Source: a virus
Lineage: Duplodnaviria > Heunggongvirae > Uroviricota > Caudoviricetes
Direction: 5' to 3' (one strand)
IMG/VR virus record: IMGVR_UViG_2703719355_000021
DNA: 35,247 nt
Part shown: piece after piece, positions 1 through 35,247 of the stretch
Position numbering within the stretch: position 1 is the first letter of the stretch
Layout of the letters: each line of letters opens with the position of its first letter
Notes under the pieces: generated by a model
Told to the model about the DNA's origin: nothing
The model's input: only the letters and a program-made list of their open reading frames with translations
Databases searched by the model: none
Translations under genes and position numbers: made by a program

Positions 1-135
1 AAAGAGTTCCTTTCAAATTTAAATAAGCGTTAAGCCCACCACTCTTACTGGTGGGCCTCAATTTAAATTTGGGTGCCACTTCGACCATACCCTGGCAACC
101 GATTGACGGGGGATTGCTCCCCCGTCGCGGTTTCC

Positions 136-276
136 TTACTGCTTACACTGTAAGAACGCCGCAAACTCCGCTCCCCAGAAGCTCATCCGTATTTCACACA
201 GCGAACCGTGCAACATCCAGATGATGAGGATTGCCGTCACGCAGAACGTGATGGCCGTAAGCGATTTTTGCGACAT
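136..276 (-). CDS. hok: Hok/Gef-family type I toxin, 46 aa small membrane peptide
   Basis: Not in ORF track (<60 aa). Translation MSQKSLTAITFCVTAILIIWMLHGSLCEIRMSFWGAEFAAFLQCKQ: one TM helix followed by SLCEIR...EFAAF, matching the conserved Hok motif (R1 Hok ...KSLCEIRYRDGHREVAAF...). AAGGAG ribosome-binding site 8 nt upstream of the ATG. Confidence 0.7.
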   Translation of the reverse strand: MSQKSLTAITFCVTAILIIWMLHGSLCEIRMSFWGAEFAAFLQCKQ

Positions 277-406
277 AGCACTTGCTCCTTTTCCGGAGAG
301 GCGCTAACCTTTCACTTGTCAAGGTAATGCGGTTAGGGCCTCGGTTAAACAGAGATGTTTTCCGGGGCCTTTCCACATCTGGCCTTCGGGTATTCCCTCC
401 GACCAT
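194..406 (-). CDS. mok-like overlapping reading frame (70 codons) spanning the hok start
   Basis: Track ORF of 70 aa in a different frame, starting upstream of hok and ending inside it, the same geometry and size as mok in hok/sok loci. No sequence similarity asserted. Confidence 0.4.
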   Translation of the reverse strand: MVGGNTRRPDVERPRKTSLFNRGPNRITLTSERLAPLRKRSKCYVAKIAYGHHVLRDGNPHHLDVARFAV

Positions 407-466
407 CAGCCGAAAGGCACCCGCGCGTAATCTATCGCTTTTTTGTTACTCCGGCAATTCTGCCTG

Positions 467-727
467 TTAATTCTGAGGTAAAGGCAAGCTCATCTGATTG
501 TTTCCCCTGTGTGAAGCTGGCAGATCATGCCACGGGATATCTTCTGAAGAGTGAACGCCGGAGGCGTGTTTTGATGTGAATTTATGGAAAGCTTCCAGTG
601 TTGAGAAGCATACGCCGCATTCCAGATTGTTACACTGGTAATACTTTTGCCGCACGGTGTTTGAATCATTTTCCGGACGACTGGTGCGGATACGGGCAGA
701 TGCGCCACAAAGCGGACAACGGAACAT
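467..727 (-). CDS. ogr: Ogr/Delta-family zinc-finger late transcription activator
   Basis: N-terminus MFRCPLCGASARIRTSR...YYQCNNLECG matches P2 Ogr (MFHCPLCQHAAHARTSR...YHQCQNVNCS) with a C4 zinc finger; GGGAGG ribosome-binding site upstream. Confidence 0.85.
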   Translation of the reverse strand: MFRCPLCGASARIRTSRPENDSNTVRQKYYQCNNLECGVCFSTLEAFHKFTSKHASGVHSSEDIPWHDLPASHRGNNQMSLPLPQN

Positions 728-769
728 AGCGACCTCCCTTAACGTGGTGCTGTCGCTATTCTAAGTTGC

Positions 770-1879
770 TCACTCTGTTTCCGCTATCCATTCCGGGATT
801 TTTGCCTCAAGCTCAAGCTGCGTGGTAAAGCCGCTGTTATCAATGGTGTGCTCGGCTTTTGCAATAATCCAGTCCTGATTATCAATCTCGCTTTTAAATC
901 CTGTTACCGTGCCATGCATTTCGGGGTAGAGTTCTGCACGTCCACGTGCCAGCGTGATGGAAAATGATGCGGCTCCGCGTTGTAGCTGCTGCCACTTTGC
1001 CGCCGCTGCGCGTCTTGCTGCCTGCTCGTTCTGATAAGTCTTGCGTAACACAAACACATTGCCTTCCGCACCTTCCATATAATCACCTTCACGGCTGCTG
1101 CTTTTCTCCTTTTTGGGTTTTGGCGGTTTACGGCGTTTTACGCTGACCTTTTTCTTTTTCCCGTAATTAAGATCAAGCCAGTGGGCGCGTACCCCCGTAT
1201 ACGCCTCGCGGTCAGCAATACGGAACTGATGGCGATCGCCGCTGCTGCGTGTAATGGCGAACGAGGGCAACGGCTGGCCCTGTGCGTTCACGCCACCACC
1301 GGGCATGATGAATAACAGATTGCCGCTTTTTACCGTGGTGATTGCGCCCAGCATTTCCGCCATGCGCGTAAGGAAGGACATATCGCTTTCTTCGGTCTGG
1401 TCGGCGTGGTCGATTTCGATATCCATCAGCATTTCGCTGATTTGCGGTTTCAGACCATACCGATGAGCGATGGCGGATACCACACGCTCAACGGTCACAT
1501 CATGCCAGGACACCTCACGTTTAACGTTAAATTCATCCCGAAAATCTGCGCTTCTGGCTGAAACAGTCAGCCTGTCCGGCGGTCCTTCGTGAGCGATTTC
1601 ATCAACAATGTAAGTGCCTTTTTCTGTCAGCGGTTCTCCTTTCCAGCCAATGAGAACCGTCAGGCGCGCGCCCCGTGGCGGTAGCTGCAACTGACCATCC
1701 GCATCATCCAGCGTGATGGTGAGCTGGTCCGCTTCAAATCCCCGGTTGTCGGTCAGTGACAGACTCATCAGGCACTCTGCCACGCCGGACAGCGTTTCCC
1801 CCTCCGCGAGAATATCAAAATCCGGCATTTTCACGGGGTCTGTGCTCTGACTGAGCAATTGCATGGTGGTGTCGGTCAT
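770..1879 (-). CDS. D: tail protein gpD (late control gene D family)
   Basis: Clear similarity to P2 gpD (LTDNRGFEADQL..., SARSADFR, ESWHD, lysine-rich KKKKVSVKRRKPPKPKK segment, EGxYMxGExxNVF). Start moved to the internal ATG at 1879 (GGGAGGG ribosome-binding site); the track ORF extends to 2011. Confidence 0.9.
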   Translation of the reverse strand: MTDTTMQLLSQSTDPVKMPDFDILAEGETLSGVAECLMSLSLTDNRGFEADQLTITLDDADGQLQLPPRGARLTVLIGWKGEPLTEKGTYIVDEIAHEGPPDRLTVSARSADFRDEFNVKREVSWHDVTVERVVSAIAHRYGLKPQISEMLMDIEIDHADQTEESDMSFLTRMAEMLGAITTVKSGNLLFIMPGGGVNAQGQPLPSFAITRSSGDRHQFRIADREAYTGVRAHWLDLNYGKKKKVSVKRRKPPKPKKEKSSSREGDYMEGAEGNVFVLRKTYQNEQAARRAAAAKWQQLQRGAASFSITLARGRAELYPEMHGTVTGFKSEIDNQDWIIAKAEHTIDNSGFTTQLELEAKIPEWIAETE

Positions 1880-2036
1880 CTGTTCCCTCCCTGTGCGGCA
1901 TGGTCGCATGTGCGTGCGGAGTGGGTTACTGCTTTTTGTTGTCGCCGTGACGGGAGAATAGCGCAGGGGTGAGATTACGCGCGTGGTGGGTGATGATTGT
2001 TGCTGAATCATTTAACGGATACAAGGGGCTGAAGCT

Positions 2037-3221
2037 ATGAGTGAAACTCGTTTTCATGGTGCCCGTGTTACGGAAAATACCGACCTGGTAACAGCGATTA
2101 ACGATGTTGATTCCAGCGTTATCGGTATCGTGGCAACGGCGGATGATGCGGACGCGAAGCTGTTCCCGCTGAACAAGCCCACACTGCTGACCCGCGTCAA
2201 TGACGTGCTGGGGAAATGCGGGACAACGGGGACGCTTTATCGTGCGCTTAAGGCCATCGCAGACCAGGTGAGCACAAAGGTGATCGTCGTTCGCGTGGCT
2301 GAACACAAAGAAGAAGACGAAAAGACGCAGGATCAACTGGTTATCGGTGGTTCTGAGGATGACGGCAGCTATACGGGGATGTATGCGCTGCTTGTTGCAG
2401 AGCAGGATGAAAGCATCGGATACCGTCCGCGTATTCTGGCCGCGCCGGAGCTGGACACGGAGGCGGTGACAAAATCCCTGTGCGTGATTGCGGGTAAACT
2501 GCGCGCATTTGTGTATGCCTCATGTCACGGCTGTAACACGATGGCTGAAGCGATTACCTACCGCCAGAAATTCAACGAACGTGAAGTGATGCTCTTATGG
2601 CCGGACTTCATCGCCTACAACCCGAAAAGTGGCGAAAACGAAACGTTCCCCGCGCCTGCCTATGCGTGCGGCCTTCGTGCGTACATTGACCATGAACAGG
2701 GCTGGCACAAATCGCTGTCCAACGTTCCGGTTAAAAATGTGCTGGGGATGTCCAGGCATGTGTTCTGGTCGTTACAGGCCGAAGACAGTGATGCCAACAG
2801 CCTCAACAACAAAGAAATCACGACCATTATTCGTCGCAACGGGTTCCGCTTCTGGGGCAACCGCACACCGGAAACGAACGCCTACATCTTTGAGGTGTAT
2901 ACCCGAACCGCACAGGTGCTGGCTGATTCAATTGCGGAAGCGCAGTTTGAAACCATCGACAGTCCACTGACGCCTGCGAACGTGAAGGATGTTATCAGTG
3001 CCATCAGGGCAAAACTGGATTCACTGGTTACTGCCGGGAAACTGATTGGCGCGGAGTGCTGGTATGACGTGGTGGATAACAGCACCACGGATTTACGTCA
3101 GGGGCGTGTGCGTATTCGCTACAAATATACGCCCGTTCCGCCACTGGAAGACATGGAGCTTTACCAGACGTTTACTGATGAATACTTTGAACCCGCATTT
3201 GCGGTGCTGGGAGGTGCCTGA
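2037..3221 (+). CDS. FI: contractile tail sheath protein gpFI
   Basis: 394 aa; size and sequence consistent with P2 FI sheath; stop overlaps the FII start (ATGA-type junction). Confidence 0.93.
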   Translation: MSETRFHGARVTENTDLVTAINDVDSSVIGIVATADDADAKLFPLNKPTLLTRVNDVLGKCGTTGTLYRALKAIADQVSTKVIVVRVAEHKEEDEKTQDQLVIGGSEDDGSYTGMYALLVAEQDESIGYRPRILAAPELDTEAVTKSLCVIAGKLRAFVYASCHGCNTMAEAITYRQKFNEREVMLLWPDFIAYNPKSGENETFPAPAYACGLRAYIDHEQGWHKSLSNVPVKNVLGMSRHVFWSLQAEDSDANSLNNKEITTIIRRNGFRFWGNRTPETNAYIFEVYTRTAQVLADSIAEAQFETIDSPLTPANVKDVISAIRAKLDSLVTAGKLIGAECWYDVVDNSTTDLRQGRVRIRYKYTPVPPLEDMELYQTFTDEYFEPAFAVLGGA

Positions 3222-3733
3222 TGGCTGTGCCAAAACATCTTCGCTTTTTTACGCTGTTTGTGGATGGTGAAAACGAAGTGGGTAAGGTGACGTCCGTCAC
3301 TCTACCTAAGCTGACGCGCAAAACCGACAGCTACCGGGGTGGTGGCATGATGGGTGCGGTAAGTATTGATCTCGGTCTGGACGACTCCGCGCTTGATGCG
3401 AGCTTTGTCATGGGGGGCGCAGTTCGTGAGCTGTTCCTTAAGTATGGCGGCACGATTGACGGCACGCTGCTGCGTTTTGCGGGTGAATACTACACCGATG
3501 CAGAAAGCGACCTGTATGAAGTCGAAATGCGCGGACGTGTGACGGAAATTGATATGGGGGAAGCCAAACAGGGCGAAGCCACATCACACACTTACGCTAT
3601 TAAAAACACCTACTACAAGCTGAGTGTTAACGATCGCCCATTGTGGGAGATTGACCTGCTGAACTTCATTTACCGGAAGGACGGCAAGGACATTGTGCCC
3701 GATCGCATCCGTTCCGCGCTTGGGCTTGGCTGA
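3221..3733 (+). CDS. FII: tail tube protein gpFII
   Basis: 170 aa immediately after the sheath gene; P2 FII-like. Confidence 0.92.
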   Translation: MAVPKHLRFFTLFVDGENEVGKVTSVTLPKLTRKTDSYRGGGMMGAVSIDLGLDDSALDASFVMGGAVRELFLKYGGTIDGTLLRFAGEYYTDAESDLYEVEMRGRVTEIDMGEAKQGEATSHTYAIKNTYYKLSVNDRPLWEIDLLNFIYRKDGKDIVPDRIRSALGLG

Positions 3734-3788
3734 TAAGTAATATGCAGGCGGCGCGGTGCGTCGCCTCTGACTGAAAAGGAGACAACTG

Positions 3789-4163
3789 ATGAAAGACATC
3801 GATACTGAAACCCGGAATAACACCGTGGCGGATGATGTGACGGCAGGAGAGGATATGGCTGTCGAACGTGGTGTAAAACTTTCCCGGCCAATTGAGCGTG
3901 GTGCCGAAAAAATCACGTATGTGGAGATCACCGGGGCTATTGAGCAGGCGGGATCCCTGCGTGGTCTGTCGCTGTCTGATGTGCTGAATCTGAAAGCGGA
4001 TACCATGTTCACGCTGTTGCCTCGCGTGACCTCGCCACGACTGGATGAAGTGATGATTAAAAAAATGTCGTCACGCGATTTTATTCAGTTGTGCGCTGTG
4101 GCTGTAAATTTTATGAGCGAGCCAGACTCTGGCGCGAAGAGCGTGCAGGAGACGGCAGCGTAA
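3789..4163 (+). CDS. E: tail assembly chaperone gpE
   Basis: 124 aa ORF between the tube and tape measure genes, preceded by AAAGGAG; the conserved position of the frameshifting chaperone. Confidence 0.85.
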   Translation: MKDIDTETRNNTVADDVTAGEDMAVERGVKLSRPIERGAEKITYVEITGAIEQAGSLRGLSLSDVLNLKADTMFTLLPRVTSPRLDEVMIKKMSSRDFIQLCAVAVNFMSEPDSGAKSVQETAA

Positions 4164-4327
4164 TCACCCTGGTGTGCTTTGAGCACATCGAAGATCTGGT
4201 GGCGGATATTGCCGCCATTTTTAACTGGTCGCCCGCCGAAATCTTCATGATGACGCCCGGCGAAGTGGTTAGCTGGCGCGAGCGGGCGGCACTTCGCAGC
4301 GGGAATGCAGATAATGAAGACTCTTGA
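4091..4327 (+). CDS. E' extension reading frame (E+E' product by -1 programmed frameshift)
   Basis: The -1 frame relative to E is open from about 4061 to 4327 and overlaps the start of T. Candidate slippery heptamer A AAT TTT at about 4106-4112 in the E frame. Confidence 0.7.
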   Translation: MRCGCKFYERARLWREERAGDGSVITLVCFEHIEDLVADIAAIFNWSPAEIFMMTPGEVVSWRERAALRSGNADNEDS

Positions 4328-7121
4328 TATCCGGGTCGCTTTCAGCGCCGTTGACAGGCTGACCCGGCCTGCCGAAAACGCCCGCCGCCTGATGGGGCAG
4401 TTTGGTGACTCCATCCAGCGAACGCAGGGGGCGATCAAAAATCTCGAGCGTCAGGCGCGTTCATTTGAGCGCGCCCGCGACGCTGTCAGTAAAGCGGATG
4501 CGGGTATCGTGAAAGCACGACGCCAGCTTAACGCCCTTAATCAGTTACAACGCACGGGTACAGTGCTCAGCGAAAAGCAACAAAAGCTGATGCAGCAGTT
4601 AAGCACCCGGCTTGAACGCCTGAATGAATCGCGCACACGGGAAATTCAGAAAATGCGGGAGCTTGGCGGAGAGCTGAAACGCCACGGCATTTCCCTAACA
4701 GGCAGCGATAGCACCATCCAGCAGGCCATCAGACGCACCGAACAGTACAACAACCAGCTTGAACGCGAACGGCAGGCGCTTGCGCGTGTAACACGTGCGC
4801 GTGAGCGGTATTCGCGCGCGCAGGAAACCGCGGGAAAACTGAAAACAGGTGGTGCGCTGGCAATTGGTGCGGCAGCGGCGGGCGGCTATGCTGCCGGGCG
4901 TTTTTTGCAGCCTGCGATCGGGTTCGGGAAAGAGATGTCCCGCGTTCAGGCACTGACGCGAATCGACCAGAACAGCCCGCAGTTTAAGGCGCTGCGTGAG
5001 CAGGCGTTAAAACTTGGCTCTGAAACGCAGTTCACTGCAGGCGATGCCGCCAGTGGGCAGGCATTTCTTGCAATGGCTGGCTTCACTCCGCAGGCCATTC
5101 AGGCTGCGCTTCCCGGCGTACTGAGCATGGCAACGGCTGGCGGTATGGATCTCGGCGAAACGGCAGATATTGGCTCAAATATCCTGACGCAGTTCGGCCT
5201 TTCTGCTGACCAGATGGACCGGGTCGGTGACACACTCACCGCAGTGTTTACCCGTACCAACACTGACCTTCGCGCACTGGGCGAAACCATGAAATATGCA
5301 GGTCCGGTGGCGGGCAAGCTGGGAATATCGCTGGAGCAGGCCGCAGCGATGGCGGGCGTACTGGCGAATATGGGTATCAGGGGAAGTGATGCCGGGACGG
5401 CAATGCGTGCCAGCCTGGCTCGTCTGGCATCACCGCCAAAGGCGGCGGCAGAAGCTCTGAAAGAGCTGGGCGTGTCCGTCTCTGATGCGAACGGCAAAAT
5501 GCGCCCGATGGAGGATTTGCTGGCCGACCTTTATAAAGCCACCCGCAAATACGGGGAAGTTGACCGGGTATCGTTCTTTAAGGACATTGCCGGAGAAGAG
5601 GCTTTCACATCATTTATGGCTCTCGTTGATGCGGCGGGTGACGGCTCCCTGCCCAAACTGAGAAAAGAACTTGAGGGCGCACGCGGTGAGGCTGAACGCA
5701 CGGCAAAGGTTATGGCCAATAACCTTGATGGCGACCTGAAATCACTCGGCAGTGCATGGGAAGGGCTGCGTATCCGCATTGCAGATCTGATTGATGGTCC
5801 GCTGCGTTCTGTCACGCAGTGGCTCACGCAGGTGGTCTCAAAGGTGACGGCGCTGGCACAGGCTCATCCGGTACTGACGCGCCAGTTACTGATAGCAGGC
5901 GGTGCGCTGCTGGCAATGACTGCAACGGTTGGCTCGTTGTCGCTGGTTATTGGAGTGCTTCACGGGAAGCTGGCCACGTTGCGTCTTGGTTTTTCTCTCC
6001 TGACCGGATCAATGAATGCTGTCAGGGTTCTGCCTGCATTATGGGGAATGGTGACAGGCTCCATCTCGTTACTGGGGGGCGCTGTCGGGGCGCTGTTCAG
6101 TCCGGTTGGGTTGATTGCTGCAGCGTTTGTCGCTGCGGCGGTTCTCATCTGGAAATACTGGGAACCCATCAAGGCGTTTTATGCCGGGGTGTTCAGCGGG
6201 ATTATGGAAAGGCTGACCCCGTTGCGCGAAACCTTTGAACGGTTTGGTCCTGTTTTTGACGCAATCGGAAGCGGGATCAGCCAGGTGTTTAACTGGTTTA
6301 AATCGCTGCTGTCACCGATGGAGTCCAGCAAGGAAACGCTGGATAAATGTACCAGTGCTGGCGAGATATTCGGTAACGTTCTTGGCGGTGCGTTACAACT
6401 TGTTCTGACGCCTGCAAAAATGCTACTGGATACGCTGGCGTGGATACTTGAAAAACTTGGCGTCCTTCCGGATGAAGCGGAAAGGGCGCGCAAGAAAATC
6501 GAAGACGCACAGCGTGCGGCCATTCTTCAGGACAAGGTTGCCTTGCTTCAGGGGGACCTGGCGAAAATCAATCCGCCGAAGCCTGTGGAAAATGGCAATG
6601 GCACCGGAGGTGATAAACCCAAAGACAACAAACCGCTCACAGACAGCAATACCGGTACGCTACGCAGACTCAGCAAAATTGCTGATAACACAGGTAAGCT
6701 GGTTGATGAGACGAAAAAACGCATTGGCCCCGGCGATATTGTCTTTAAGAACCTGCCCCGCGCACTTGCTGTTCGTGGGGAGTGGCAGGAGCGGAAGATT
6801 GCGCAGATCAGTAAGCCTGCTTCCGCAATCAACATCACACCCGTGGTCCCGACTCCTCTGCCTCCGGCGCTGGTCCCTGTTGTTGCGGCCAGCTCCCGCC
6901 CGGTGGCGGAGGCCATACGATCGCCAGTGGCATCAGTTCCTGCAACTTCCCGTAACCGGGAGCCTGTTGTCTCCGGATTTGGCGGTGAAATTCATGTTCA
7001 TCTGCATAACGTTGTTACGCAGAATCCCCGCGAACTGGCGAAACTGGTCGGTGAAATGGTCAGGGCAGAATTGGAACGACGCGACCGTGCCGGACGTGGC
7101 AGTTTTTACGATAAAGATTGA
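4305..7121 (+). CDS. T: tail tape measure protein gpT
   Basis: 938 aa; coiled-coil N-terminal region, Gly/Ala-rich hydrophobic central segment; position after E/E'. Confidence 0.9.
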   Translation: MQIMKTLDIRVAFSAVDRLTRPAENARRLMGQFGDSIQRTQGAIKNLERQARSFERARDAVSKADAGIVKARRQLNALNQLQRTGTVLSEKQQKLMQQLSTRLERLNESRTREIQKMRELGGELKRHGISLTGSDSTIQQAIRRTEQYNNQLERERQALARVTRARERYSRAQETAGKLKTGGALAIGAAAAGGYAAGRFLQPAIGFGKEMSRVQALTRIDQNSPQFKALREQALKLGSETQFTAGDAASGQAFLAMAGFTPQAIQAALPGVLSMATAGGMDLGETADIGSNILTQFGLSADQMDRVGDTLTAVFTRTNTDLRALGETMKYAGPVAGKLGISLEQAAAMAGVLANMGIRGSDAGTAMRASLARLASPPKAAAEALKELGVSVSDANGKMRPMEDLLADLYKATRKYGEVDRVSFFKDIAGEEAFTSFMALVDAAGDGSLPKLRKELEGARGEAERTAKVMANNLDGDLKSLGSAWEGLRIRIADLIDGPLRSVTQWLTQVVSKVTALAQAHPVLTRQLLIAGGALLAMTATVGSLSLVIGVLHGKLATLRLGFSLLTGSMNAVRVLPALWGMVTGSISLLGGAVGALFSPVGLIAAAFVAAAVLIWKYWEPIKAFYAGVFSGIMERLTPLRETFERFGPVFDAIGSGISQVFNWFKSLLSPMESSKETLDKCTSAGEIFGNVLGGALQLVLTPAKMLLDTLAWILEKLGVLPDEAERARKKIEDAQRAAILQDKVALLQGDLAKINPPKPVENGNGTGGDKPKDNKPLTDSNTGTLRRLSKIADNTGKLVDETKKRIGPGDIVFKNLPRALAVRGEWQERKIAQISKPASAINITPVVPTPLPPALVPVVAASSRPVAEAIRSPVASVPATSRNREPVVSGFGGEIHVHLHNVVTQNPRELAKLVGEMVRAELERRDRAGRGSFYDKD

Positions 7122-7127
7122 GGAGTC

Positions 7128-7622
7128 ATGGCCATGATGATGATCTACGGCATGTTTGTTTTTGAGCTGCGTACATTGCCGCATCAACAGTTACAGCAAA
7201 ACAAAAGCTGGCGGCATGTGAAAAATGAACGCGTTAACCGTTCAGCAAGCTGGCAGTATATCGGTGCAGGTGATGATCGCATCGTTCTTTCTGGTGTGCT
7301 TTATCCTGAAATTACAGGTGGCGAAGTGTCGCTGTCGCTGCTGACCACGCAGGCGTATACAGGACGACCCTGGCCTTTGATTGATGGTGTCGGGCAGATT
7401 TACGGCATGTATGTGCTGACTGAAACGAATACGACCCGTTCCGAGTTTGATCGCTACGGTAAGGCGAAAAAGATAGAATTTTCACTGACTCTTGAACGCT
7501 GTGATGAGGATTTGCGGGAGCGCCTGCAATCCTCATCGTTCAGTGATATGCTGTCCGGCTTCAAAGATAAGGTCACATCATCCCTTAACAGCGCGGCCAG
7601 CTCCGTTAAAGGGCTGTTTTGA
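7128..7622 (+). CDS. U: tail protein gpU
   Basis: 164 aa directly after the tape measure gene; P2 gpU-like. Confidence 0.88.
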   Translation: MAMMMIYGMFVFELRTLPHQQLQQNKSWRHVKNERVNRSASWQYIGAGDDRIVLSGVLYPEITGGEVSLSLLTTQAYTGRPWPLIDGVGQIYGMYVLTETNTTRSEFDRYGKAKKIEFSLTLERCDEDLRERLQSSSFSDMLSGFKDKVTSSLNSAASSVKGLF

Positions 7623-7631
7623 TTAACGCAA

Positions 7632-7668
7632 AACCGCTAATGGTCAGATTAGCGGTTATTTTGTTTTC
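7632..7668. terminator. bidirectional intrinsic terminator between convergent U and invertase genes
   Basis: aaccgctaat-ggtcag-attagcggtt perfect 10 bp stem followed by attttgtttt; it sits between the U stop and the invertase stop. Confidence 0.6.
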
Positions 7669-8243
7669 TGACTCTTCTCTATTGTTCCGCTTGATTCTCC
7701 TGCGGGGTGGTAACGATAAATCGTCGATGTACCAATGCCGTAAATTATTGCCAGTTGTTTTCTGTCGTGACCGTTTTTAATCAGCCTTGCTATTTGCTCA
7801 TGCTGTTCTTTTGTCAGCTTCGGGCGACGTCCGCCTGTGCGCCCCCGTGCGCGCGCTGCTGCCAGTCCGGCCAGTGTACGTTCAACGATTAATTCACGTT
7901 CCATTTCAGCCAGGGCACCCATAACGTGGAAGAAAAAACGCCCCATTGGAGAAGATGTATCTATGCTGTCGGTCAGACTGCGAAAATTAATCCCTCGCTC
8001 CTGTAGTTCCCCGACGAGAGAAATCAGATGTTTCATGCTTCGCCCGAGGCGATCCAGTTTCCAGACAACCAGCGTGTCACCTTTTTGAAGGCGCTTTAAA
8101 GCGCGTTTTAATCCCGGTCGGTCTGTCTTTGTCCCGCTTAATTTATCTTCAAATATTTGTTCACATCCTGCACAAACAAGAGCGTTTCGTTGCAGGTCTG
8201 TATTCTGGTCATTTGTTGATACCCTTACATAGCCAATCAGCAC
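7656..8243 (-). CDS. Gin/Pin/Hin-family serine DNA invertase
   Basis: Near-identical in pattern to Mu Gin (LIGYVRVSTNDQNTDLQRNALVCAGCEQIFEDKLSGT...); catalytic Ser in VRVSTNDQ; C-terminal HTH. Start taken as GTG at 8243 (GGGAGA ribosome-binding site); the track begins at a TTG at 8261. Confidence 0.92.
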   Translation of the reverse strand: MLIGYVRVSTNDQNTDLQRNALVCAGCEQIFEDKLSGTKTDRPGLKRALKRLQKGDTLVVWKLDRLGRSMKHLISLVGELQERGINFRSLTDSIDTSSPMGRFFFHVMGALAEMERELIVERTLAGLAAARARGRTGGRRPKLTKEQHEQIARLIKNGHDRKQLAIIYGIGTSTIYRYHPAGESSGTIEKSQKTK

Positions 8244-8314
8244 GCTGAATCTCCCGTCCAAAAGCGTAAATCATGCCATGCAGGTCAGAAACGGCCATTA
8301 TCTAAAACCTCGGT

Positions 8315-9262
8315 TTGCAGGAAACGATAAATCAGGCTTCAGGCGCATTGCAGAAAAACCAGAACGGCGCAGATATTCCAGGAAAAGATACCTTCACAAA
8401 AAATATTGGTGCATGTCGCGCTTTTCACAGTTCTATTAGTACAGGTGCAGGGAACTGGACGACGGCACAATTGATTGAATGGCTGGATTCTCAAGGGGCA
8501 TTCAATCACCCATACTGGATGTGCAAATGTTCATGGTCATACGGCAATAATAAAATTATTACCGATACTGGCTGTGGAACTATTCATCTTGCAGGTTGCG
8601 TTATTGAGGTTATGGGTAATAAAGGTGCCATGACCATCCGTGTAACCACCCCGAGCACTTCCAGCGGTGGCGGAACTACTAATGCACAATTTACTTATAT
8701 AAACCATGGCGCAGATTACGCCCCAGGCTGGCGGCGCGACTACAGCACAAAAAACCAGCAACCTGCATTTGCTTTAGGGCAAACAGGAAGCAGGGTTGCA
8801 AATGATAAAGCTGTTGGCTGGAACTGGAATAGCGGCGTTTATGATGCAGATATCAGTGGCGCATCGACATTAATCCTCCACTTCAATATGAATGCGGGGA
8901 GTTGCCCTGCTGTACAGTTCCGCGTGAATTATAAGAACGGCGGTATCTTTTATCGTTCAGCGCGTGATGGTTATGGCTTTGAAGCTGACTGGTCAGAGTT
9001 TTACACCACAACCCGCAAACCCTCTGCGGGGGATGTTGGTGCATATACGCAGGCAGAATGTAACTCAAGGTTTATTACAGGTATTCGCCTTGGCGGTCTG
9101 TCATCTGTTCAGACATGGAATGGTCCCGGCTGGTCTGACAGGTCAGGTTATGTCGTTACGGGTTCAGTTAACGGAAACCGTGATGAATTAATTGATACAA
9201 CACAGGCAAGGCCAATTCAGTATTGCATTAATGGGACGTGGTATAACGCGGGGAGTATTTAA
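8315..9262 (+). CDS. alternative (currently unexpressed) tail-fibre C-terminal variable segment
   Basis: The ORF begins inside the crossover site with ...LQET, the same residues found in gene H at the other site ([11 protein letters not shown]). It has no start codon of its own, so it would be fused to the H constant region after inversion. Confidence 0.8.
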   Translation: MQETINQASGALQKNQNGADIPGKDTFTKNIGACRAFHSSISTGAGNWTTAQLIEWLDSQGAFNHPYWMCKCSWSYGNNKIITDTGCGTIHLAGCVIEVMGNKGAMTIRVTTPSTSSGGGTTNAQFTYINHGADYAPGWRRDYSTKNQQPAFALGQTGSRVANDKAVGWNWNSGVYDADISGASTLILHFNMNAGSCPAVQFRVNYKNGGIFYRSARDGYGFEADWSEFYTTTRKPSAGDVGAYTQAECNSRFITGIRLGGLSSVQTWNGPGWSDRSGYVVTGSVNGNRDELIDTTQARPIQYCINGTWYNAGSI

Positions 9263-9264
9263 CG

Positions 9265-9798
9265 ATGATGCACTTAAAAAACATTACTGCTGGCAACCCT
9301 AAAACAAAAGAGCAATACCAGCTAACAAAGCAATTTAACATCAAATGGCTTTATTCAGATGATGGAAAAAACTGGTATGAGGAACAAAAGAATTTCCAGC
9401 CAGACACTTTGAAAATGGTCTATGACCATAACGGCGTTATTATTTGTATTGAAAAGGATGTTTCAGCAATTAATCCAGAAGGCGCAAGCGTCGTTGAGGT
9501 TCCTGATATTACAGCAAATCGCCGGGCTGATATTTCGGGGAAATGGATGTTCAAAGATGGCGTAGTGATAAAGCGAACTTACACCGAGGAAGAGCAGAGG
9601 CAACAAGCGGAAAATGAAAAGCAAAGCCTGTTGCAACTTGTCAGGGATAAAACCCAGCTATGGGACTCACAGCTACGGCTGGGCATCATTTCCGACGAGA
9701 ATAAACAAAAATTAACCGAGTGGATGCTCTATGCGCAGAAAGTCGAATCCACAGACACCTCCAGCCTGCCAGTAACGTTTCCCGAACAACCTGAATGA
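9265..9798 (+). CDS. tail fibre assembly protein (alternative copy)
   Basis: 177 aa, N-terminus MMHLKNITAGNPKT...[13 protein letters not shown] paralogous to the minus-strand copy at 9827-10354. Confidence 0.85.
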   Translation: MMHLKNITAGNPKTKEQYQLTKQFNIKWLYSDDGKNWYEEQKNFQPDTLKMVYDHNGVIICIEKDVSAINPEGASVVEVPDITANRRADISGKWMFKDGVVIKRTYTEEEQRQQAENEKQSLLQLVRDKTQLWDSQLRLGIISDENKQKLTEWMLYAQKVESTDTSSLPVTFPEQPE

Positions 9799-9802
9799 GA
9801 CA

Positions 9803-9822
9803 AGGCCCGATATCGGGCCTTA
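9803..9822. terminator. bidirectional hairpin between the convergent fibre-assembly genes
   Basis: aaggcccgatatcgggcctt perfect palindrome followed by a T-run on the plus strand. Confidence 0.55.
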
Positions 9823-9826
9823 ATTT

Positions 9827-10354: not shown

Positions 10355-10355
10355 C

Positions 10356-12401: not shown

Positions 12402-12403
12402 GC

Positions 12404-13823: not shown

Positions 13824-13826
13824 GAT

Positions 13827-17101: not shown

Positions 17102-17103
17102 TG

Positions 17104-18700: not shown

Positions 18701-18745
18701 TCTTTCTCTCCGTTACAGGCGGGCATGATGCCCGCCGTGAGTTGA

Positions 18746-19798: not shown

Positions 19799-19821
19799 AA
19801 AAAATTTGCTCCTTTGTCTTA

Positions 19822-20658: not shown

Positions 20659-20812
20659 AGTTTTTGCCCCTCTGACTGGTTCTTCAGTCATGATGGCAAA
20701 GCGTAACAGGCTGATACAAAGGGCTTTTGTTGTAAGAAAACGGCCAGAACAGGGGGTTAAGGAGAACGGTTTCGCGCGCGGGTAATCTTCCTGTAATTAC
20801 TCAGGGGGAGCA

Positions 20813-25300: not shown

Positions 25301-25612
25301 TTATTCGGGAAATAACGCCCGGATATTTCCGGCCATCTGACTGGTTATCTGTGCGGTTGGTGCTGGCTGTGGCACGGGGCGTTCTGTCCTGGTTTGTGTC
25401 ACTGATAACGCCTCGCCATCAGCCCATGCAGCCAGTCGGTAAGCCTCTGCCGGATTCATTTTCAGAAGTGCCAGCCCGGCCAGAAAAGCCACGCGTTGGC
25501 TGCTTTTGCGGGCTTCTGGTGTAAGGCTGTCCAGCCAGGCGCATGCTTCGCTTTCGTTCTTGACGGCGGCGGGCTTCAGATAGAAACTTATCCGTCTGGT
25601 TGGTGTCGTCAT
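25301..25612 (-). CDS. parR: ParR-like centromere-binding partition adaptor
   Basis: Internal start MTTPTRRISFYLKPAAV...LDSLTPEARKSSQRVAFLAGLALL...IRALFPE matches recalled plasmid R1 ParR (RRTIAFKLNPDV...LDSIPQGERSRLNRAALTAGLALY...LRSLFPK); AAGGAG ribosome-binding site embedded in the parM 3' end. Confidence 0.75.
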   Translation of the reverse strand: MTTPTRRISFYLKPAAVKNESEACAWLDSLTPEARKSSQRVAFLAGLALLKMNPAEAYRLAAWADGEALSVTQTRTERPVPQPAPTAQITSQMAGNIRALFPE

Positions 25613-25616
25613 TGGT

Positions 25617-26576
25617 TTACTCCTTGTCCATTGCGTACAGCCCATTAACCAGAGCAAACTGTGGCACCCCGTCCGCGATGAAAGTCGCATTAACTCCGCA
25701 GGCTTCGCGGATAGCGGGTGCCACAATCTCCGCCCCGCCACCGACAACCATCACCCGCCCGTAACCCGAAAAACCCGCCAGTGCGCGGATTACGCGTTGT
25801 TTCAGTGTTTCTTCCTTTTCACGAATAACCGCCATCAGGCTGGCGTAATGCGCGTCATTGTGGATGTGCTGGCGCAGCCAGGCTTCATCATGGCGATGTT
25901 CGATAATGGTATTGGCGATGTGGTGACTGGTACGCATACCGTTAGTGGCCATCACCGACAGTACGGCATCGGCCATCAGGGAAACGCCTACGTGTGGATC
26001 GCAAAACACCTGGCTGATACCTGCCAGTTGTCCCTGAACCTTTGCCACATCCAGCGTGGTTCCGCCTAAATCCACAATCAGCAGGGATTCAAACGGACTC
26101 ATGTCAGCCAGTGCTTTAAAACCAGCCGGTATGGATTCAGGCATAACCCGTACGTTACGGATAGTGAATGCTTTTCCGTTCTGGTACGCCACCGGGCGCA
26201 TGACGTTTGCTTTTTTGCGGTTGATGTTGGCCATGTCCGGCTGTGCGTTTGTGTCGAAATACTCGCTCAGTGGCAGGGTGACAACCACATCCACCTCCTG
26301 TGGCGTGATGCCTGATTTGACCAGCGCGTGATGAATGGCAATGACATTCACATCGCTGTACTGGTATTGCGTGTCGGTCGTCTGGACAAAGCGATCGCTG
26401 ACCGGATCAAAACCATAGCGCACGCCATCAAGCATGTAGTTCGCGGGCTGCGTGCCACCGAACGGCGCAGACCATTCCGACTTGAAGCTGTTCGGGCTGA
26501 TGGCGTTGCGGCGTTCGCCGTTCTCAGTCCATGCCAGCTTGATGTTGGTGGAGCCGTCGTCGATACAAATTCTCAT
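25617..26576 (-). CDS. parM: ParM/StbA-family actin-like segregation ATPase
   Basis: MRICIDDGSTNIKLAW...ISPNSFKSEW...YQYSDVNVIAIHHAL...VDVVVTLPL closely parallels R1 ParM (MLVFIDDGSTNIKLQW...ISPNSFKREW...WQYSDVNVVAVHHAL...); AAGGAAAA ribosome-binding site. Confidence 0.9.
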   Translation of the reverse strand: MRICIDDGSTNIKLAWTENGERRNAISPNSFKSEWSAPFGGTQPANYMLDGVRYGFDPVSDRFVQTTDTQYQYSDVNVIAIHHALVKSGITPQEVDVVVTLPLSEYFDTNAQPDMANINRKKANVMRPVAYQNGKAFTIRNVRVMPESIPAGFKALADMSPFESLLIVDLGGTTLDVAKVQGQLAGISQVFCDPHVGVSLMADAVLSVMATNGMRTSHHIANTIIEHRHDEAWLRQHIHNDAHYASLMAVIREKEETLKQRVIRALAGFSGYGRVMVVGGGAEIVAPAIREACGVNATFIADGVPQFALVNGLYAMDKE

Positions 26577-26605
26577 CTCGATTTTCCTTATGTTGATTAA
26601 TTAAT

Positions 26606-26720
26606 CGTTTACGGGATTCTGAAATCCCGTTTTTGCCTGTTTTGTGCGCGCTTCACATATCGCTGCGCGTTTTTTGCTCATTTACGGGATTTGTGAATCC
26701 CGTTTCTGTCTGTTTTTTGT
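26606..26720. repeat. two ~40 bp direct repeats, each with a palindrome (acgggatt-N5-aatcccgt), upstream of parM: candidate parC centromere/operator
   Basis: cgtttacgggattctgaaatcccgtttttgcctgtttt (about 26606) and catttacgggatttgtgaatcccgtttctgtctgtttt (about 26679), 73 bp apart; the second lies within the last codons of gene A. Confidence 0.5.
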
Positions 26721-29475
26721 TTCCACTGGTCAGGCCACCCCGCAGCAGGTCTGCTTTGCGGCGGGCGCGTTCAGTGGTTTCACTGATTCTCTGTGCGTGC
26801 TCTGCGTCGCGGATGGCGCGCAGCATGTCAGAAAGCACGGTAACGGGTGTTTTCATGGTGTTCTGGTCCTGCTGAAGTGTGGATGCCAGGCGTGCGGCGG
26901 CTTCAGGGTCTGATGCCCCCAGCTGTGCCAGATAGCTGGCGACCGGGTTATGGCGGATCTCCGTGCTGCTTACGCCATGATTACGGCTCAGGCGCTGCCA
27001 GAGCTGCGTGATTCGGCTGTCCGGGCGGGTATCCGGTTTGCGTACAATTTCAAATCCCTGCGGTGCAATGATGCTGCCGTCAACGTACAGACTGCCGCCC
27101 CGTAACAGGTGCTGCATCTGTTGTTCACCGATATGCAGGCCGAGAGATTCAGCAGACTCTCGCCATTCTTTAGCGAGTAATTCGTGGTTATCAGGCAAAG
27201 GCCGCTGCTGTTTGCGGCTCTGTGTCCAGCTCTGCATTTCATCACTGCTGTTTTTTGCCTGTTTGTCACGAAGCGAACGCATCAGCGCCCGGCGTTCGTG
27301 CCGTTTCAGTGAGCGCATCCATTCGTTCACTTCAACGCCGTCAGGGAGCTGCGGCCACGGTGCTGGCCGTTCTTCCGGCTGTTCTGTCCCGTTGTTGTCC
27401 GTTTCCTGTACACGGGGACAGTTATTGCCACGAGTCCAAGGGGCGGCAGGGCCGCCCTGAAGGTCAAAACCATTTTCGCGGGCGCTGTCTTCCGCTTCCG
27501 GTTTGCGTCTTACCAGCTTCCAGTTATCCGGATGCGTGCACACACGGGAGGATTCCCCGATGAGTGGTGACCAGATCCCGTAAATCTGTACGCTCTGTTC
27601 GCCGTAATCGTTCAGCTCATCGGCGAGGTCGTAGGCGGTGCGAATCAGGTAGTCTTTGCGTGGAACAAGTACGCCGCCCTGTTTCTCTATGTAGGTGGCA
27701 AAACATCCGGCATCAGCGGCGGCAAGAACCGCATCCATTGCGTCATCCTTCAGCCGTTGCGGGCCTTCCGGGTTGCGTGCCATCTGGCTGGCAAGGCGGC
27801 GCAGTTCACGCCATACCTGGCGGGAGGGGATGCCAAAGAACTGGAACTGGCGGACCCGGTGAAGGCGCGCCCAGCCGATGGCGCGTTCCACGCTCTCGGC
27901 CATTGATTTTCCGGTTTCGTGGTCAACGCGTGGCTTGCCCGTTTTCGGGTCGATGCCATCCACGGCGCGGCTGTCCAGGTTTTTCCCGATGTAGGTGGCA
28001 ATGTAGCTGGTTGGCGTGCCTTTTGAGCCGTCTACATACTCCGCCTTAAAGCGCGGAGTTATGTCATCGCCCAGCTCGTGACGATCTTCCTGAATGGCAA
28101 TATCGCGGGTGTGGGACACAATGGTGTCGATTTCTTCCGGATGAGCAAAGACCATCATATGCCAGTGCACGGTGCCGTCATGGTGAGGCTCCACCGTGCG
28201 GATGCCATACCAGCGCAGGCCGTCGCGGTTCAGTTTCTTGCGGACCGCCGCAAAAAACGTGTTAACCAGGTAATCGCTGGAGTCGCGCATGGTGGCCCCG
28301 TTCCATTTGGGGTTCGGATGACCGTTCTCCGTTGTTGCGTGGTATTTTGACGGGCAGGTGACGGTCAGAAACACCGCTCTGTCGCCACGGGCTTCGGCCA
28401 GAAGTTCCAGTCCCTTCATGGTGGCCATCATTTCTGCTTTACGGTGAACCGGGTTACTTACTCCCGCGTAATACACCGTCTCGAGATCAATCGTGAACCC
28501 GTCTTCATTTTCCAGCATGAAACTTTTCAGGAAATCGCGTGTTTTCTCGCGCTGTGCGCGAAACTCGCTTAACGCGTCCTGGCTCAGATAGGGTGATGTT
28601 TTTCTGGAAACCAGACAGGCGGCGCGGAGTTGTTCTTCTCTCCACTCGCAACGTAACAGCCACAGTTTGCGTTTCCACCATTCCGCACAGGTCAGGCGAA
28701 GGATTGCGCCCGGCAGCAGCTCCGTGTCCGGTTCGTTCCTCCGGTCTTTATCTGTTGTCAGTGCGTCATAATGTGGAGGCATGATGTGCAGGTGTAACGC
28801 CATGCGGGCCAGCATCTGATACGCCTTCAGCGTTACATCCATGGTCAGTTCGCCATCGGTCGCGCCAAAGCCATCGCAGAGTTTTTCGAAGGTGCTGCTG
28901 AACATCGCCGCCGTCATGGTGGCCAGCGTCTGTATCTGGTGTTTGTTGAGCTGCGGCAGGTAAAGCAAATCGTCCAGGCGTTCGCGTCCGGCAAGGGAGC
29001 GATAACCCGGTGTCAGCCAGTGTCCGTCAGTGCGATCCAGACGTTCGAATATTTTGCGCAGGGTTCCGCGTGCATAGCGTTCCGCCTGCCAGCTCTTTTT
29101 GCCTTTCCGGCGATCGGCTTCCTGTTTTTTGCGCAGGAAGGAGAGGTGGCGAATAAGCGGATCGCGCAGATAGGACGGCAGCAGGCGCAGCGAGGCCATG
29201 GCTTCATCCACCGCGCCGCGTGCCTGTTTTCTGGCGTCTCCTGCCAGTGTGATGGTTTTGTCCTGTTTTTCCTGTGCGTCCAGGCTTTTATTAATCAGGT
29301 TGCCCAGCGGCGTGGCGGAGAACGCCGCATCAGCCATTTCCTTGCGGCGCTCGTTCTCTGCCCGGTAGGCATCCAGCCAGGAGGAAAGCGCGGATTCAGG
29401 AGCGGGGATCCCCGTTCCTTCACGCCCCACTGCGTGGCGCGGTTGTTGCCAGTCCCTGATGTACTCTGCCGTCAT
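26653..29475 (-). CDS. A: replication initiation protein gpA (rolling-circle endonuclease family) with extended C-terminal region
   Basis: 940 aa; HHDGTVHWHMMVF-type HUH-like motif and P2/186 A-like central region; last gene of the early operon; about 180 aa longer than P2 A. Confidence 0.88.
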   Translation of the reverse strand: MTAEYIRDWQQPRHAVGREGTGIPAPESALSSWLDAYRAENERRKEMADAAFSATPLGNLINKSLDAQEKQDKTITLAGDARKQARGAVDEAMASLRLLPSYLRDPLIRHLSFLRKKQEADRRKGKKSWQAERYARGTLRKIFERLDRTDGHWLTPGYRSLAGRERLDDLLYLPQLNKHQIQTLATMTAAMFSSTFEKLCDGFGATDGELTMDVTLKAYQMLARMALHLHIMPPHYDALTTDKDRRNEPDTELLPGAILRLTCAEWWKRKLWLLRCEWREEQLRAACLVSRKTSPYLSQDALSEFRAQREKTRDFLKSFMLENEDGFTIDLETVYYAGVSNPVHRKAEMMATMKGLELLAEARGDRAVFLTVTCPSKYHATTENGHPNPKWNGATMRDSSDYLVNTFFAAVRKKLNRDGLRWYGIRTVEPHHDGTVHWHMMVFAHPEEIDTIVSHTRDIAIQEDRHELGDDITPRFKAEYVDGSKGTPTSYIATYIGKNLDSRAVDGIDPKTGKPRVDHETGKSMAESVERAIGWARLHRVRQFQFFGIPSRQVWRELRRLASQMARNPEGPQRLKDDAMDAVLAAADAGCFATYIEKQGGVLVPRKDYLIRTAYDLADELNDYGEQSVQIYGIWSPLIGESSRVCTHPDNWKLVRRKPEAEDSARENGFDLQGGPAAPWTRGNNCPRVQETDNNGTEQPEERPAPWPQLPDGVEVNEWMRSLKRHERRALMRSLRDKQAKNSSDEMQSWTQSRKQQRPLPDNHELLAKEWRESAESLGLHIGEQQMQHLLRGGSLYVDGSIIAPQGFEIVRKPDTRPDSRITQLWQRLSRNHGVSSTEIRHNPVASYLAQLGASDPEAAARLASTLQQDQNTMKTPVTVLSDMLRAIRDAEHAQRISETTERARRKADLLRGGLTSGNKKQTETGFTNPVNEQKTRSDM

Positions 29476-33448: not shown

Positions 33449-33466
33449 ATCAAAACTCCCTGCATC

Positions 33467-33793
33467 TCATGCAGCAAAATTAAGGAAGCCTAATCCCAAA
33501 TCTTCCGCCAGCTTCTTGGCTTTCTTAAGCCAGTGATTGCGCCAATCTTTACGCTCAGGAGGAAGCTGTTTCGTTGCGTCATAGACCATTTCGAGCCACT
33601 CATTCCAAAGGATGAGAAGACGGCGCGAACTCCCTTCCTCGCCTAAAACCTCGCGCTCAGTAGTTAGAGGGATGAGTCGACGCTCTACCAACTTTCTTAC
33701 GGCTGATTCGGTCTTACCTGTGCGGCGGGAAAACTCATCGACGGTGATGGGGTCTGGGATCTTAAACAATGCCCTCAATAGTTCTTCATTCAT
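33467..33793 (-). CDS. Cox/Apl-like small HTH regulator (putative excisionase / switch protein)
   Basis: First gene of the leftward early operon, divergent from C; internal start MNEELLRALFKIPDPITVDEFSRRTGKTESAVRKLVERRLIP (HTH); GGGAG ribosome-binding site. Assignment is by position. Confidence 0.6.
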   Translation of the reverse strand: MNEELLRALFKIPDPITVDEFSRRTGKTESAVRKLVERRLIPLTTEREVLGEEGSSRRLLILWNEWLEMVYDATKQLPPERKDWRNHWLKKAKKLAEDLGLGFLNFAA

Positions 33794-33888
33794 GTGATAA
33801 TCTCCCTGTTTGGGGTATTTCTTGCGACGGATGCCCCAAATCAAACTCATTTGTATAAACATTAATACAGACGTTGGAGAATTGCAAC

Positions 33889-34191
33889 ATGCGTATGACT
33901 ATTGGAGAGCGCATAAAAATCATGCGTGAAAGCGAGAGACTTACTAGCCTCCCGGATACAGCAAAAATGCTTGGTTTAAACCGTGATGCTCTGTGGAGAT
34001 ATGAAAGCGGTAAAACTATCCCTAATGCTGAAGTAATTGAGCAAATACTAAACAACCCCAGATTTGAGAAATATGCGTTGTGGTTTATGACTGGGAAAAT
34101 TGCGCCTGAATCCGGGCAGATAGCTCCGGCTCTCGCACACTATGGGCAAGAGCCAACGGACTTACCCCCATCCGAAAGGAAAATTGGCTAA
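33889..34191 (+). CDS. C: P2-type immunity repressor C
   Basis: TIGERIKIMRESERL...YESGKTIP...FEKYALWFMTGKIAPESGQIAPALAHYGQ aligns with P2 C (TISEKIVLMRKSEYL...YESGRSTP...FTKYTLWFMTNQIAPESGQIAPALAHFGQ); start at the ATG with a GGAGA ribosome-binding site. Confidence 0.88.
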   Translation: MRMTIGERIKIMRESERLTSLPDTAKMLGLNRDALWRYESGKTIPNAEVIEQILNNPRFEKYALWFMTGKIAPESGQIAPALAHYGQEPTDLPPSERKIG

Positions 34192-34257
34192 CCCTTTATT
34201 ATTCTTACGTTTTACAAACTGGAAATGTCTTTCCTCGTTTCACCGGAGGGCTTGCCA

Positions 34258-35247
34258 ATGGCAATTAAAGCGCTCGATGGTGGACGGTATAAAGTGGATG
34301 TTAGACCGCGTGGCCGAAGTGGACGTCGGATTCAGCGGATTTTTAAGAAAAAGGCAGATGCAGTGGCCTTTGAGCGTTATGTTCTCAGCCACATGCACGA
34401 TAAGGAATGGCTTGAAAAGCCAACAGAGCAACGTCATCTCTCAGATCTGCTTCCGTTATGGTGGGAATTGGGTGGACGCAATAAGCCATATGCTAACGGC
34501 GTTCTAACCAGGTTGAAAAAAATCATCAAAGAAATGAATGATCCAAGGGTTAGCCAGATTAATGCTCGTTTCATGGCCGCTTATCGAAGCTCCCGTTTAT
34601 CCTTGGGAGTAAAAGAGTCTACTGTTCGGCGTGATGAGTCGGATCTCGGAGGAATGTTTACACTCCTGGCAAATGCCGGGGAATTTCACGGAGAAAATCC
34701 GCTCCGCGCCCTCCCCTCTTTGAAACGAAAATCACCCGAAATGACGTATCTCACCACGGAAGAAATCGCCAAATTACTGGATGCAGTAAGCGGTGATGCC
34801 CGGCGGATTACGCTACTTTGTCTCAGTACTGGGGCGAGATGGGGAGAAGCGAAAAATCTGCGCGCGGAACACATCATCAATAATCGCGTGACGTTTAACA
34901 AAACTAAAAACGGAAAAGTTCGAATTATTCCTGTCTCTGATGAAGTTGTTAGTGAGATCAAAACAAAGAAATCCGGCCTTTTGTTTGACGTCAATTATGA
35001 GGAATATCGCAAGGTGCTTCGCAGTGTTAAGCCAGACCTACCAAAAGGACAGGCTGTACATGTTCTACGCCATACCTTTGCTGCTCACTTTATGATTAAT
35101 GGAGGAAATATACTTACGCTCCAGCGAATTATGGGGCACGCTACGATCCAGCAAACTATGACCTATGCGCACCTCGCTCCTGATTTCCTCCAGGATGCAA
35201 TTTCACTTAATCCGTTAAAAGGAGGCATCCACATTTCATCCACATAA
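34258..35247 (+). CDS. int: tyrosine integrase (P2 Int family)
   Basis: MAIKALDGGRYKVDVRPRGRSGRRIQR...LCLSTGARWGEA...HVLRHTFAAHFMINGGNILTLQRIMGH...YAHLAPDFLQDAISLNPL closely parallels P2 Int; GGAGGG ribosome-binding site. The window ends at its stop codon. Confidence 0.95.
   Translation: MAIKALDGGRYKVDVRPRGRSGRRIQRIFKKKADAVAFERYVLSHMHDKEWLEKPTEQRHLSDLLPLWWELGGRNKPYANGVLTRLKKIIKEMNDPRVSQINARFMAAYRSSRLSLGVKESTVRRDESDLGGMFTLLANAGEFHGENPLRALPSLKRKSPEMTYLTTEEIAKLLDAVSGDARRITLLCLSTGARWGEAKNLRAEHIINNRVTFNKTKNGKVRIIPVSDEVVSEIKTKKSGLLFDVNYEEYRKVLRSVKPDLPKGQAVHVLRHTFAAHFMINGGNILTLQRIMGHATIQQTMTYAHLAPDFLQDAISLNPLKGGIHISST

Follow-up and report, generated by a model that had tools for sequence, protein, structure and literature searches.

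Gene content of the window

The IMG/VR virus record IMGVR_UViG_2703719355_000021, a stretch of 35,247 nucleotides (nt) from a tailed virus (the window, hereafter), was analysed because a partition operon of the plasmid type, parM-parR (parMR), and a toxin locus of the Hok/Gef family occur in it together with phage genes. The gene for an actin-like ATPase, parM (25617..26576, minus strand, 319 amino acids (aa)), is followed after a 4-nt gap by the gene for its adaptor, parR (25301..25612, minus strand, 103 aa). Directly upstream of parM lies gene A, encoding a replication endonuclease of 940 aa (26653..29475, minus strand; Pfam Phage_GPA, 1.4e-131). The hok toxin gene (136..276, minus strand, 46 aa) is located at the other end of the window and always adjoins ogr/Delta, the gene of a late-gene activator (467..727, minus strand; Pfam Ogr_Delta, 5.2e-14). 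Pfam searches detected the P2-type core genes Phage_GPA, Ogr_Delta, Phage_integrase and an HTH repressor, and a weak match for cox. These matches, together with the identity to phage P88 described below, confirmed the sequence-only reading in so far as the element is P2-like and encodes an integrase, a partition operon of type II and a toxin locus of the hok family. Every feature listed in that reading, namely hok and the mok-like frame overlapping it, parM and parR with a repeat pair ahead of parM, and cox, C and int, was found at or near the position given there.

Relation to P88-like prophages

In a Megablast comparison with phage records (query, window 1-25000), window 71-24061 aligned with Escherichia phage P88 (NC_026014) with 96.0% identity and 92% of the query covered; the parMR, gene A and early region matches the same phage with ~96% identity (parMR and gene A, 95.9%). 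P88 belongs to the genus Xuanwuvirus of the Peduoviridae, the P2 family, and the gene order of the window agrees with its annotation. The RefSeq record of P88 already carries the annotations 'plasmid segregation protein ParM', 'partition protein' and 'MokW-like host killing / hok/gef family protein' besides int, C and Cox. A published genome therefore already shows the co-occurrence of partition and killing genes that had drawn attention to the window, and parM, parR and hok are found together in P88 as well as in a dozen related phage records. P88 and its relatives, including Citrobacter phage PhiSM, show ~96% nucleotide identity to the window over most of the genome and share with it the order gene A-parM-parR, the pair ogr-hok and an invertible fibre segment. 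The window differs from P88 in the immunity/int module (~33430-35247) and part of the early region, which are of another type, common to prophages at the pheL-raiA site such as that of E. coli TUM1881, and in its cargo, both past hok and in the slot that separates parR from the portal gene. The window is a mosaic whose ends match TUM1881. No match of at least 99% identity to its parMR was found in 5,426 complete E. coli genomes, and the window is therefore not TUM1881 itself.

Both ends of the window match E. coli chromosomes with 99.9-100% identity. In the nearest chromosome, that of TUM1881, the prophage sits between pheL/pheA and raiA and is bounded by a 27-nt direct repeat (26/27 identical) whose copies are 36,418 bp apart. 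The copy of this attachment (att) core on the int side (attL) is located 87-113 nt past the int stop codon, and the copy at the other end (attR) between a phage-borne DNA methyltransferase gene and raiA. In this prophage hok lies ~1.7 kb inside attR and is followed by the TM2, com and methyltransferase genes. The int region of the window is 99.9% identical to that of the TUM1881 chromosome. In Z1323HEC0067 the integrated prophage lies between flk and pdxB; it is taken up again below with the circular record.

As had been noted from the sequence, the last base of the window is the end of the int stop codon. In TUM1881 the ATG of the next gene, TM2, directly follows the nucleotide that corresponds to base 1, the att core does not occur anywhere in the window, and the IMG/VR provirus L009 stops at the same int stop codon. 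Both ends of the window are therefore cuts made by trimming at gene boundaries. Since a complete circular genome must contain attP, a window without the att core is not a circle opened at int, and the earlier suggestion to this effect fails. The att sites were cut from the window, and with them probably ~1.5 kb of right-end cargo (TM2, com and DNA methyltransferase). The sequence-only reading had also named findings that would speak against its proposal: chromosomal flanks with a duplicated att core and hok on the host side, or non-functional parM and parR. Flanks and duplicated core were found in the nearest relative TUM1881, whereas hok lies on the phage side; parMR, as judged from its sequence, looks functional.

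These results make it probable that the window comes from an ordinary P88-like prophage integrated in a chromosome and was cut at gene boundaries, with parMR as an old, near-core module serving phage circles and hok as a phage-borne cassette.

The att core of TUM1881 (L002 6682-6708 and 43100-43126) reads ACAAAAAACGCGCCCGAAGG(T/C)GCGTTG and forms a GC-rich hairpin with an A/T run. It lies 23 nt downstream of raiA and is probably the raiA terminator, regenerated by the phage on integration. The cargo between hok and attR of TUM1881 (L002 41565-42999) encodes a zinc-ribbon/TM2-domain protein and a Com-regulated DNA methyltransferase in an arrangement resembling mom/com of phage Mu; in P88 and other relatives this slot is filled by different genes.

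The ParM and ParR proteins

ParM matched the Pfam families StbA_N (1.2e-81) and ParM C-terminal domain (1.3e-68). Alignment to ParM of plasmid R1 (PDB 1mwk; E=1.5e-92) covered residues 2-316 and revealed that the nucleotide-binding stretches DDGSTNIK, PESIPAG, DLGGTTLD and GGGAE are kept. The gene is intact in 9/9 copies with a ratio of nonsynonymous to synonymous substitution rates (dN/dS) of 0.05-0.13, which demonstrates that parM is under strong purifying selection. ParR matched the family Plasmid_stab_B (PF10784; 5.6e-24) and had no match among solved structures and none in NCBIfam. Its dN/dS of 0.33-0.65 exceeds that of parM, and several alleles are strongly diverged. Over the nine copies the N-terminal MTTPTRRISFYLKP is invariant and the C-terminal NI..LFPE tail is kept, with a variable linker between them.

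Among phage records, ParM occurs only in 14 P88-like records (95-99% identical) and in the P1-like phage D6 (48%), whereas other plasmid ParMs, among the best 5,000 matches, are at most 53.5% identical to the phage protein. The capture of parM is therefore old, long before the diversification of the phage group, and the gene is near-core in the lineage now. The repeated capture of plasmid genes that had been considered for the element stands in this deep sense only: both modules are of the plasmid type and were acquired at some point. The two were not captured together; parMR and hok lie 25 kb apart in two cargo positions, one downstream of gene A and the other downstream of ogr.

A ParM sharing 97% identity with that of the E. 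coli phage is also encoded on a 226-kb contig attributed to 'Vagococcus sp. WN89Y' (NZ_JBQPOM010000071.1, L012). This contig is most likely enterobacterial DNA in that assembly.

The palindrome pair upstream of parM

The region ahead of parM contains a candidate ParR-binding site resembling parC in position, composed of two 42-nt repeats (26605..26719; repeats 26605-26646 and 26678-26719, 73 bp apart). Each repeat holds a perfect 20-bp palindrome, ACGGGATT-N4-AATCCCGT (26611-26630 and 26684-26703), and one repeat copy is located inside the 3' end of gene A. Even with three mismatches allowed, the window contains these two sites only; 0.20 were expected by chance, and two were reached in 1/100 shuffles. 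The parM-proximal palindrome is exact in 7/9 homologous loci; L006 and L007 differ from it by two substitutions. Of the distal palindrome, which lies inside gene A, only the window and L006 have an exact copy, the other loci showing one or two substitutions.

The complete operon resembles ParMRC of plasmid R1 (parA/stb) in its ParM, in a PF10784 ParR encoded directly downstream and in repeats directly upstream. It differs in its location on an integrating phage, probably within an early replication operon, and in that no consensus promoter was found. The sequence-only reading had assigned a ParMRC locus to 25301-26720; parM, parR and the upstream repeat agree with this assignment, but the 'parC' consists of two palindromes and is not R1-like. 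In an IncFII plasmid, the nearest plasmid system examined, the upstream region contains AT-rich short iterons around a promoter, unrelated in sequence to the two 20-bp palindromes, and in BLASTP the ParR of this plasmid had no pairwise similarity to that of the window.

Binding of ParR to the palindromes is suggested by their position directly upstream of parM, which fits the centromere/operators of type II systems, and by their conservation along with the invariant ParR N-terminus. A 20-bp palindrome would also suit ribbon-helix-helix dimers, if ParR is such a protein. The palindromes could instead be a rolling-circle origin or termination signal of gene A, or the terminator of an antisense transcript, with the ParR site located elsewhere or lost. 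The copy inside the gene A 3' end fits such a function, both palindromes score on the plus strand as terminator-like hairpins with T-rich tails, and two sites are few compared with the many iterons of an R1-type parC. However, no plus-strand gene upstream needs termination there, and we regard this explanation as a serious alternative of fairly low probability.

Probable place of parMR in the early operon

Gene A and parM are encoded on the same strand with a gap of 76 nt, and a scan found neither a consensus promoter nor a minus-strand terminator between them. The parM-parR pair therefore probably belongs to the early operon, which begins with cox and which C silences in lysogens. The first gene of this operon (33467..33793, minus strand; coordinates via TUM1881) is cox-like, with a Pfam Phage_Cox score of 24.6 bits (cut-off, 27.5), and is named Cox family DNA-binding protein in one RefSeq record. 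The C-type immunity repressor gene (33889..34191, plus strand) was assigned from its HTH_31 match (1.1e-7) and its position between cox and int. The tyrosine integrase gene follows (34258..35247, plus strand; Pfam Int_N, 5.6e-23; Phage_integrase, 3.7e-17).

The hok locus

The hok product matched Pfam HOK_GEF (4.1e-7, 29.9 bits; cut-off, 22). HokA was its best-scoring NCBIfam family, with 34 bits under a cut-off of 89, and in TUM1881 the RefSeq name is 'Hok/Gef family protein'. Over 31 residues it is 39% identical to what we take to be the sequence of R1 Hok. One residue differs between the Hok of the window and the P88 allele. A frame of 70 codons from the open reading frame list overlaps the hok start (194..406, minus strand); it is mok-like by position and overlap only and had no family match. 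The full hok mRNA, including a sok-homologous leader and a fold-back, was predicted at 71..422 (minus strand) from Rfam and minimum free energy folding. In the predicted fold of 60-440 (minus strand), the 5' GGGUGCCUUUCG (~422) pairs with the 3' CGAAGUGGCACCC (~71-83), with z=-5.49 against shuffles. Such 5'-3' fold-back is the arrangement described for hok mRNAs. The homology to P88 and to the circular record NZ_CP148288.1 (L003, see below) ends exactly at the 3' GGCACCC of the hok mRNA. Differences between alleles concentrate in the leader, and the fold-back ends of the mRNA are conserved. By eye, though not by scan, a possible hok promoter, TTGCCG-17-TAGATT, was picked.

The position of hok inside the att sites and its presence in the P88 genome record demonstrate that hok is a phage gene. 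Identical Hok is encoded on some plasmids of 142-165 kb, and a recent plasmid origin was considered for this reason. It was set aside, as on pCss165Kan, the one plasmid examined, the ogr-hok pair is retained within a remnant of a P88-type prophage. The locus shares with hok/sok of R1 (parB) and with the chromosomal hok loci of E. coli the Hok/Gef toxin, the overlapping upstream frame, the leader matching the sok model and the 5'-3' mRNA fold-back. It differs from them in the short Hok (46 aa), in HokA being its best but sub-cut-off family, in the lack of an identified sok promoter and in its link to the phage gene ogr, which is kept on plasmids with prophage remnants as well. Beside ogr, hok forms a self-contained type I toxin locus carried by the phage. 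Most likely it acts as an addiction or abortive-infection cassette that would penalise loss of the prophage or abort infection by other phages.

Chromosomal and extrachromosomal occurrence

The presence of both stability functions had led to the proposal of a dual lifestyle, in which P88-like phages either integrate or persist as a low-copy episome, partitioned by ParMRC and enforced by hok/sok. Intact parMR under purifying selection and the combination of both classical R1-type functions on one element are in favour of it. Among the complete E. coli genomes, 1,308/5,426 (~24%) contain parMR; 1,454 of the places where it occurs are chromosomal and 2 are on plasmids. For the gene A lineage the count is 1,443 genomes, with 1,630 places in chromosomes and 2 on plasmids, and ~94% of the genomes having it keep the parMR module. 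PLSDB contains six records with ParM of at least 95% identity, five of them large (228 kb to 1.4 Mb, inserted copy) and one a circle of 34,461 bp, NZ_CP148288.1. The large 'plasmid' records, with 98-99% ParM identity, were rejected as episomes; they hold an inserted copy and are not free phage genomes.

The circular record NZ_CP148288.1, from a cat isolate and deposited as 'plasmid', is P88-like, carries an int-attP-methyltransferase-com-hok junction and speaks in favour of an episome. Several structural genes are fragmented or absent in its gene table, and PLSDB gives no plasmid replicon type for it. In a human sister isolate of the same study, however, this phage is found in integrated form between flk and pdxB, with 100.0% identity over 10.4 kb (NZ_CP148378.1 2649492-2683653, L015). 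Moreover, the 32.6-kb circular 'plasmid' pENTAS02 of Enterobacter soli (NC_015969.1, L014), which served as a control, is a complete-looking P2-like genome with integrase yet without ParM, and circular P2-like records therefore arise without a partition system. pENTAS02 also has a gene of the PAPS-reductase family and a Dam methylase gene next to gene A, and no partition genes.

The P2-type gene A endonuclease, in its repressor-controlled early operon, is the sole replication gene detected in the window; no separate plasmid-type replicon was detected, although an unrecognised one could escape. A stable plasmid prophage is therefore unlikely. The literature agrees with chromosomal lysogeny: P88 was induced with mitomycin C from a chromosomal prophage bounded by attL and attR (PMC5285337), and K-12 strains lysogenic for PhiSM are stable and immune, as set out under a heading on chromosomal integration (PMC6456863). 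No claim of a phage-plasmid among Xuanwuvirus or P2-like phages was met in a literature search. With 1,454 of 1,456 parMR places being chromosomal, the dual lifestyle is not supported, and we consider it quite improbable. The same low standing is given to its narrower form, in which ParMR and the palindromes would keep a transient or facultative episome segregationally stable, possibly as a carrier state that follows infection or excision and precedes integration or lysis. On this view P88-like phages would count as integrative phage-plasmids with a rolling-circle replicon of the P2 type, and hok/sok would kill the cells that lose the circle.

Possible role of ParMR in phage development

P2 gene A drives rolling-circle replication and thereby yields circular monomers, the substrate of packaging. 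We propose that after infection or induction the early operon would be derepressed and parMR read through from the replication genes, while gene A produces circular phage genomes. ParR would bind the palindromes, and ParM filaments would move or separate the phage circles. Replication, packaging or the passage of phage DNA to daughter cells would benefit, and not the long-term maintenance of a plasmid prophage.

The closest parallel is AlpA/AlpC/alpS of prophage CGP3 in Corynebacterium glutamicum, also an integrated prophage with an actin-like ATPase and a DNA-binding adaptor with its site, the latter a candidate in the window. The placement of parM-parR directly after gene A on the same strand puts an actin-like protein and its adaptor with replication genes, as in AlpACS. 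AlpC and AlpA are reported to support the transport of viral DNA and to be needed for its efficient replication after induction (PMC4446434, PMC5539076). The two systems have no detectable sequence relationship and differ in host and phage type; the function of AlpAC has been demonstrated, whereas P88-type ParMR is known from sequence. By this analogy parMR most likely acts on excised or replicating circular phage DNA. The P1-like Escherichia phage D6 is likewise a tailed temperate phage with a ParM homologue. It is a phage of 91 kb and, like other P1-like phages, is maintained as a plasmid by a plasmid replicon of its own, whereas the P88-like phages have int and att sites and reside in chromosomes.

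Several observations weigh against a trimmed, ordinary prophage whose parMR serves phage circles. Integration was observed in near-identical relatives, the window's own assembly not being among them, and NZ_CP148288.1 is a free circle. A search for the parent contig with a 39-mer specific to the window met two shorter proviruses in IMG/VR, neither of them the parent, and no match in the genome collection. The hok leader (263-422, minus strand) matched the Rfam sok model (RF01794) with E=1.1e-9 and 48.4 bits, under the gathering score of 59, and the scan found no consensus promoter for hok or sok on either strand. The palindromes have the other explanation given above. Finally, parM and parR are intact in prophage remnants in which gene A is truncated by an insertion sequence or frameshifted (L004, E. 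coli O111:NM; L006, O121:H19), which hints at selection or a role independent of phage replication.

This last observation would fit a role of parMR in the lysogen, where the integrated prophage might interfere with the partition of incoming plasmids or phage-plasmids that have related centromeres, or act in exclusion or defence, from a weak promoter of its own. The diverged ParR alleles, with a dN/dS above that of ParM, show a pattern typical of specificity determinants, and the module borders a variable cargo slot. However, no consensus promoter is present upstream of parM, and the palindromes and the N-terminal strand of ParR are near-invariant, although switching of specificity should change them together. 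Cross-talk with IncFII plasmids is unlikely in view of their unrelated parC region and dissimilar ParR. A function in the lysogen is thus considered unlikely, if somewhat less so than an episomal lifestyle. Least probable is that parMR and hok have no function and were left behind by old recombination with plasmids. Published phage papers list an ORF without further discussion and demonstrate no function; the ParM ORF of PhiSM, for example, is simply listed as a possible 'fitness' gene (PMC6456863). The selection data disfavour this explanation: parM has a dN/dS of ~0.1 and is intact in every copy compared, nearly all genomes of the gene A lineage keep the module, and Hok and the fold-back ends of its mRNA are conserved. 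An action of ParMR on replicating phage circles remains the preferred reading.

As a discovery the present case is small, since public phage and genome records already contain the element with its ParM, ParR and Hok genes, and it behaves as a normal integrating prophage. Its interest lies in an actin-like segregation machine maintained by purifying selection in an integrating myovirus with rolling-circle replication that roughly one in four complete E. coli genomes contains. If ParMR indeed positions or distributes replicating circles, this would extend the idea of a phage cytoskeleton for viral DNA, known from AlpAC, to common enterobacterial prophages. P88 and PhiSM would be tractable models for the role of ParMR in the positioning and distribution of phage DNA.

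Other genes of the window

The structural genes were assigned via the annotated relatives P88 and TUM1881. The P2-type late block (770..23610) comprises D, sheath, tube, tape measure, an invertible fibre segment, baseplate, lysis, capsid, terminase and portal genes. The slot between parR and the portal gene, whose gene content varies among relatives, is occupied in the window by two ead/Ea22-like genes (24102..25237, minus strand; Pfam Ead_Ea22, 2.3e-25 and 8.3e-22).

In the early region, a derepression gene of the antirepressor type (29920-30150, minus strand, 76 aa; Pfam Derepression, 9.1e-8) was found together with a C4 antisense RNA (30207-30294, minus strand; 83.2 bits) and an isrK-like RNA (30330-30404, minus strand; 64.1 bits), both above the Rfam gathering score. 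The position of the isrK-like and C4 RNAs directly upstream of the Derepression gene resembles the antirepressor cassette of immunity region I of P1/P7, which is under antisense-RNA control, here placed in a P2-like early operon.

A DNA invertase of the resolvase family (7656-8261, minus strand; Pfam Resolvase, 1.4e-50) is encoded beside opposed tail-fibre and fibre-assembly genes (8315-9798, plus strand, and 9827-12401, minus strand), an arrangement that marks window 7656-12401 as an invertible host-range segment. Inversion in P88-type prophages has been reported in a preprint (10.1101/2022.05.07.487787).

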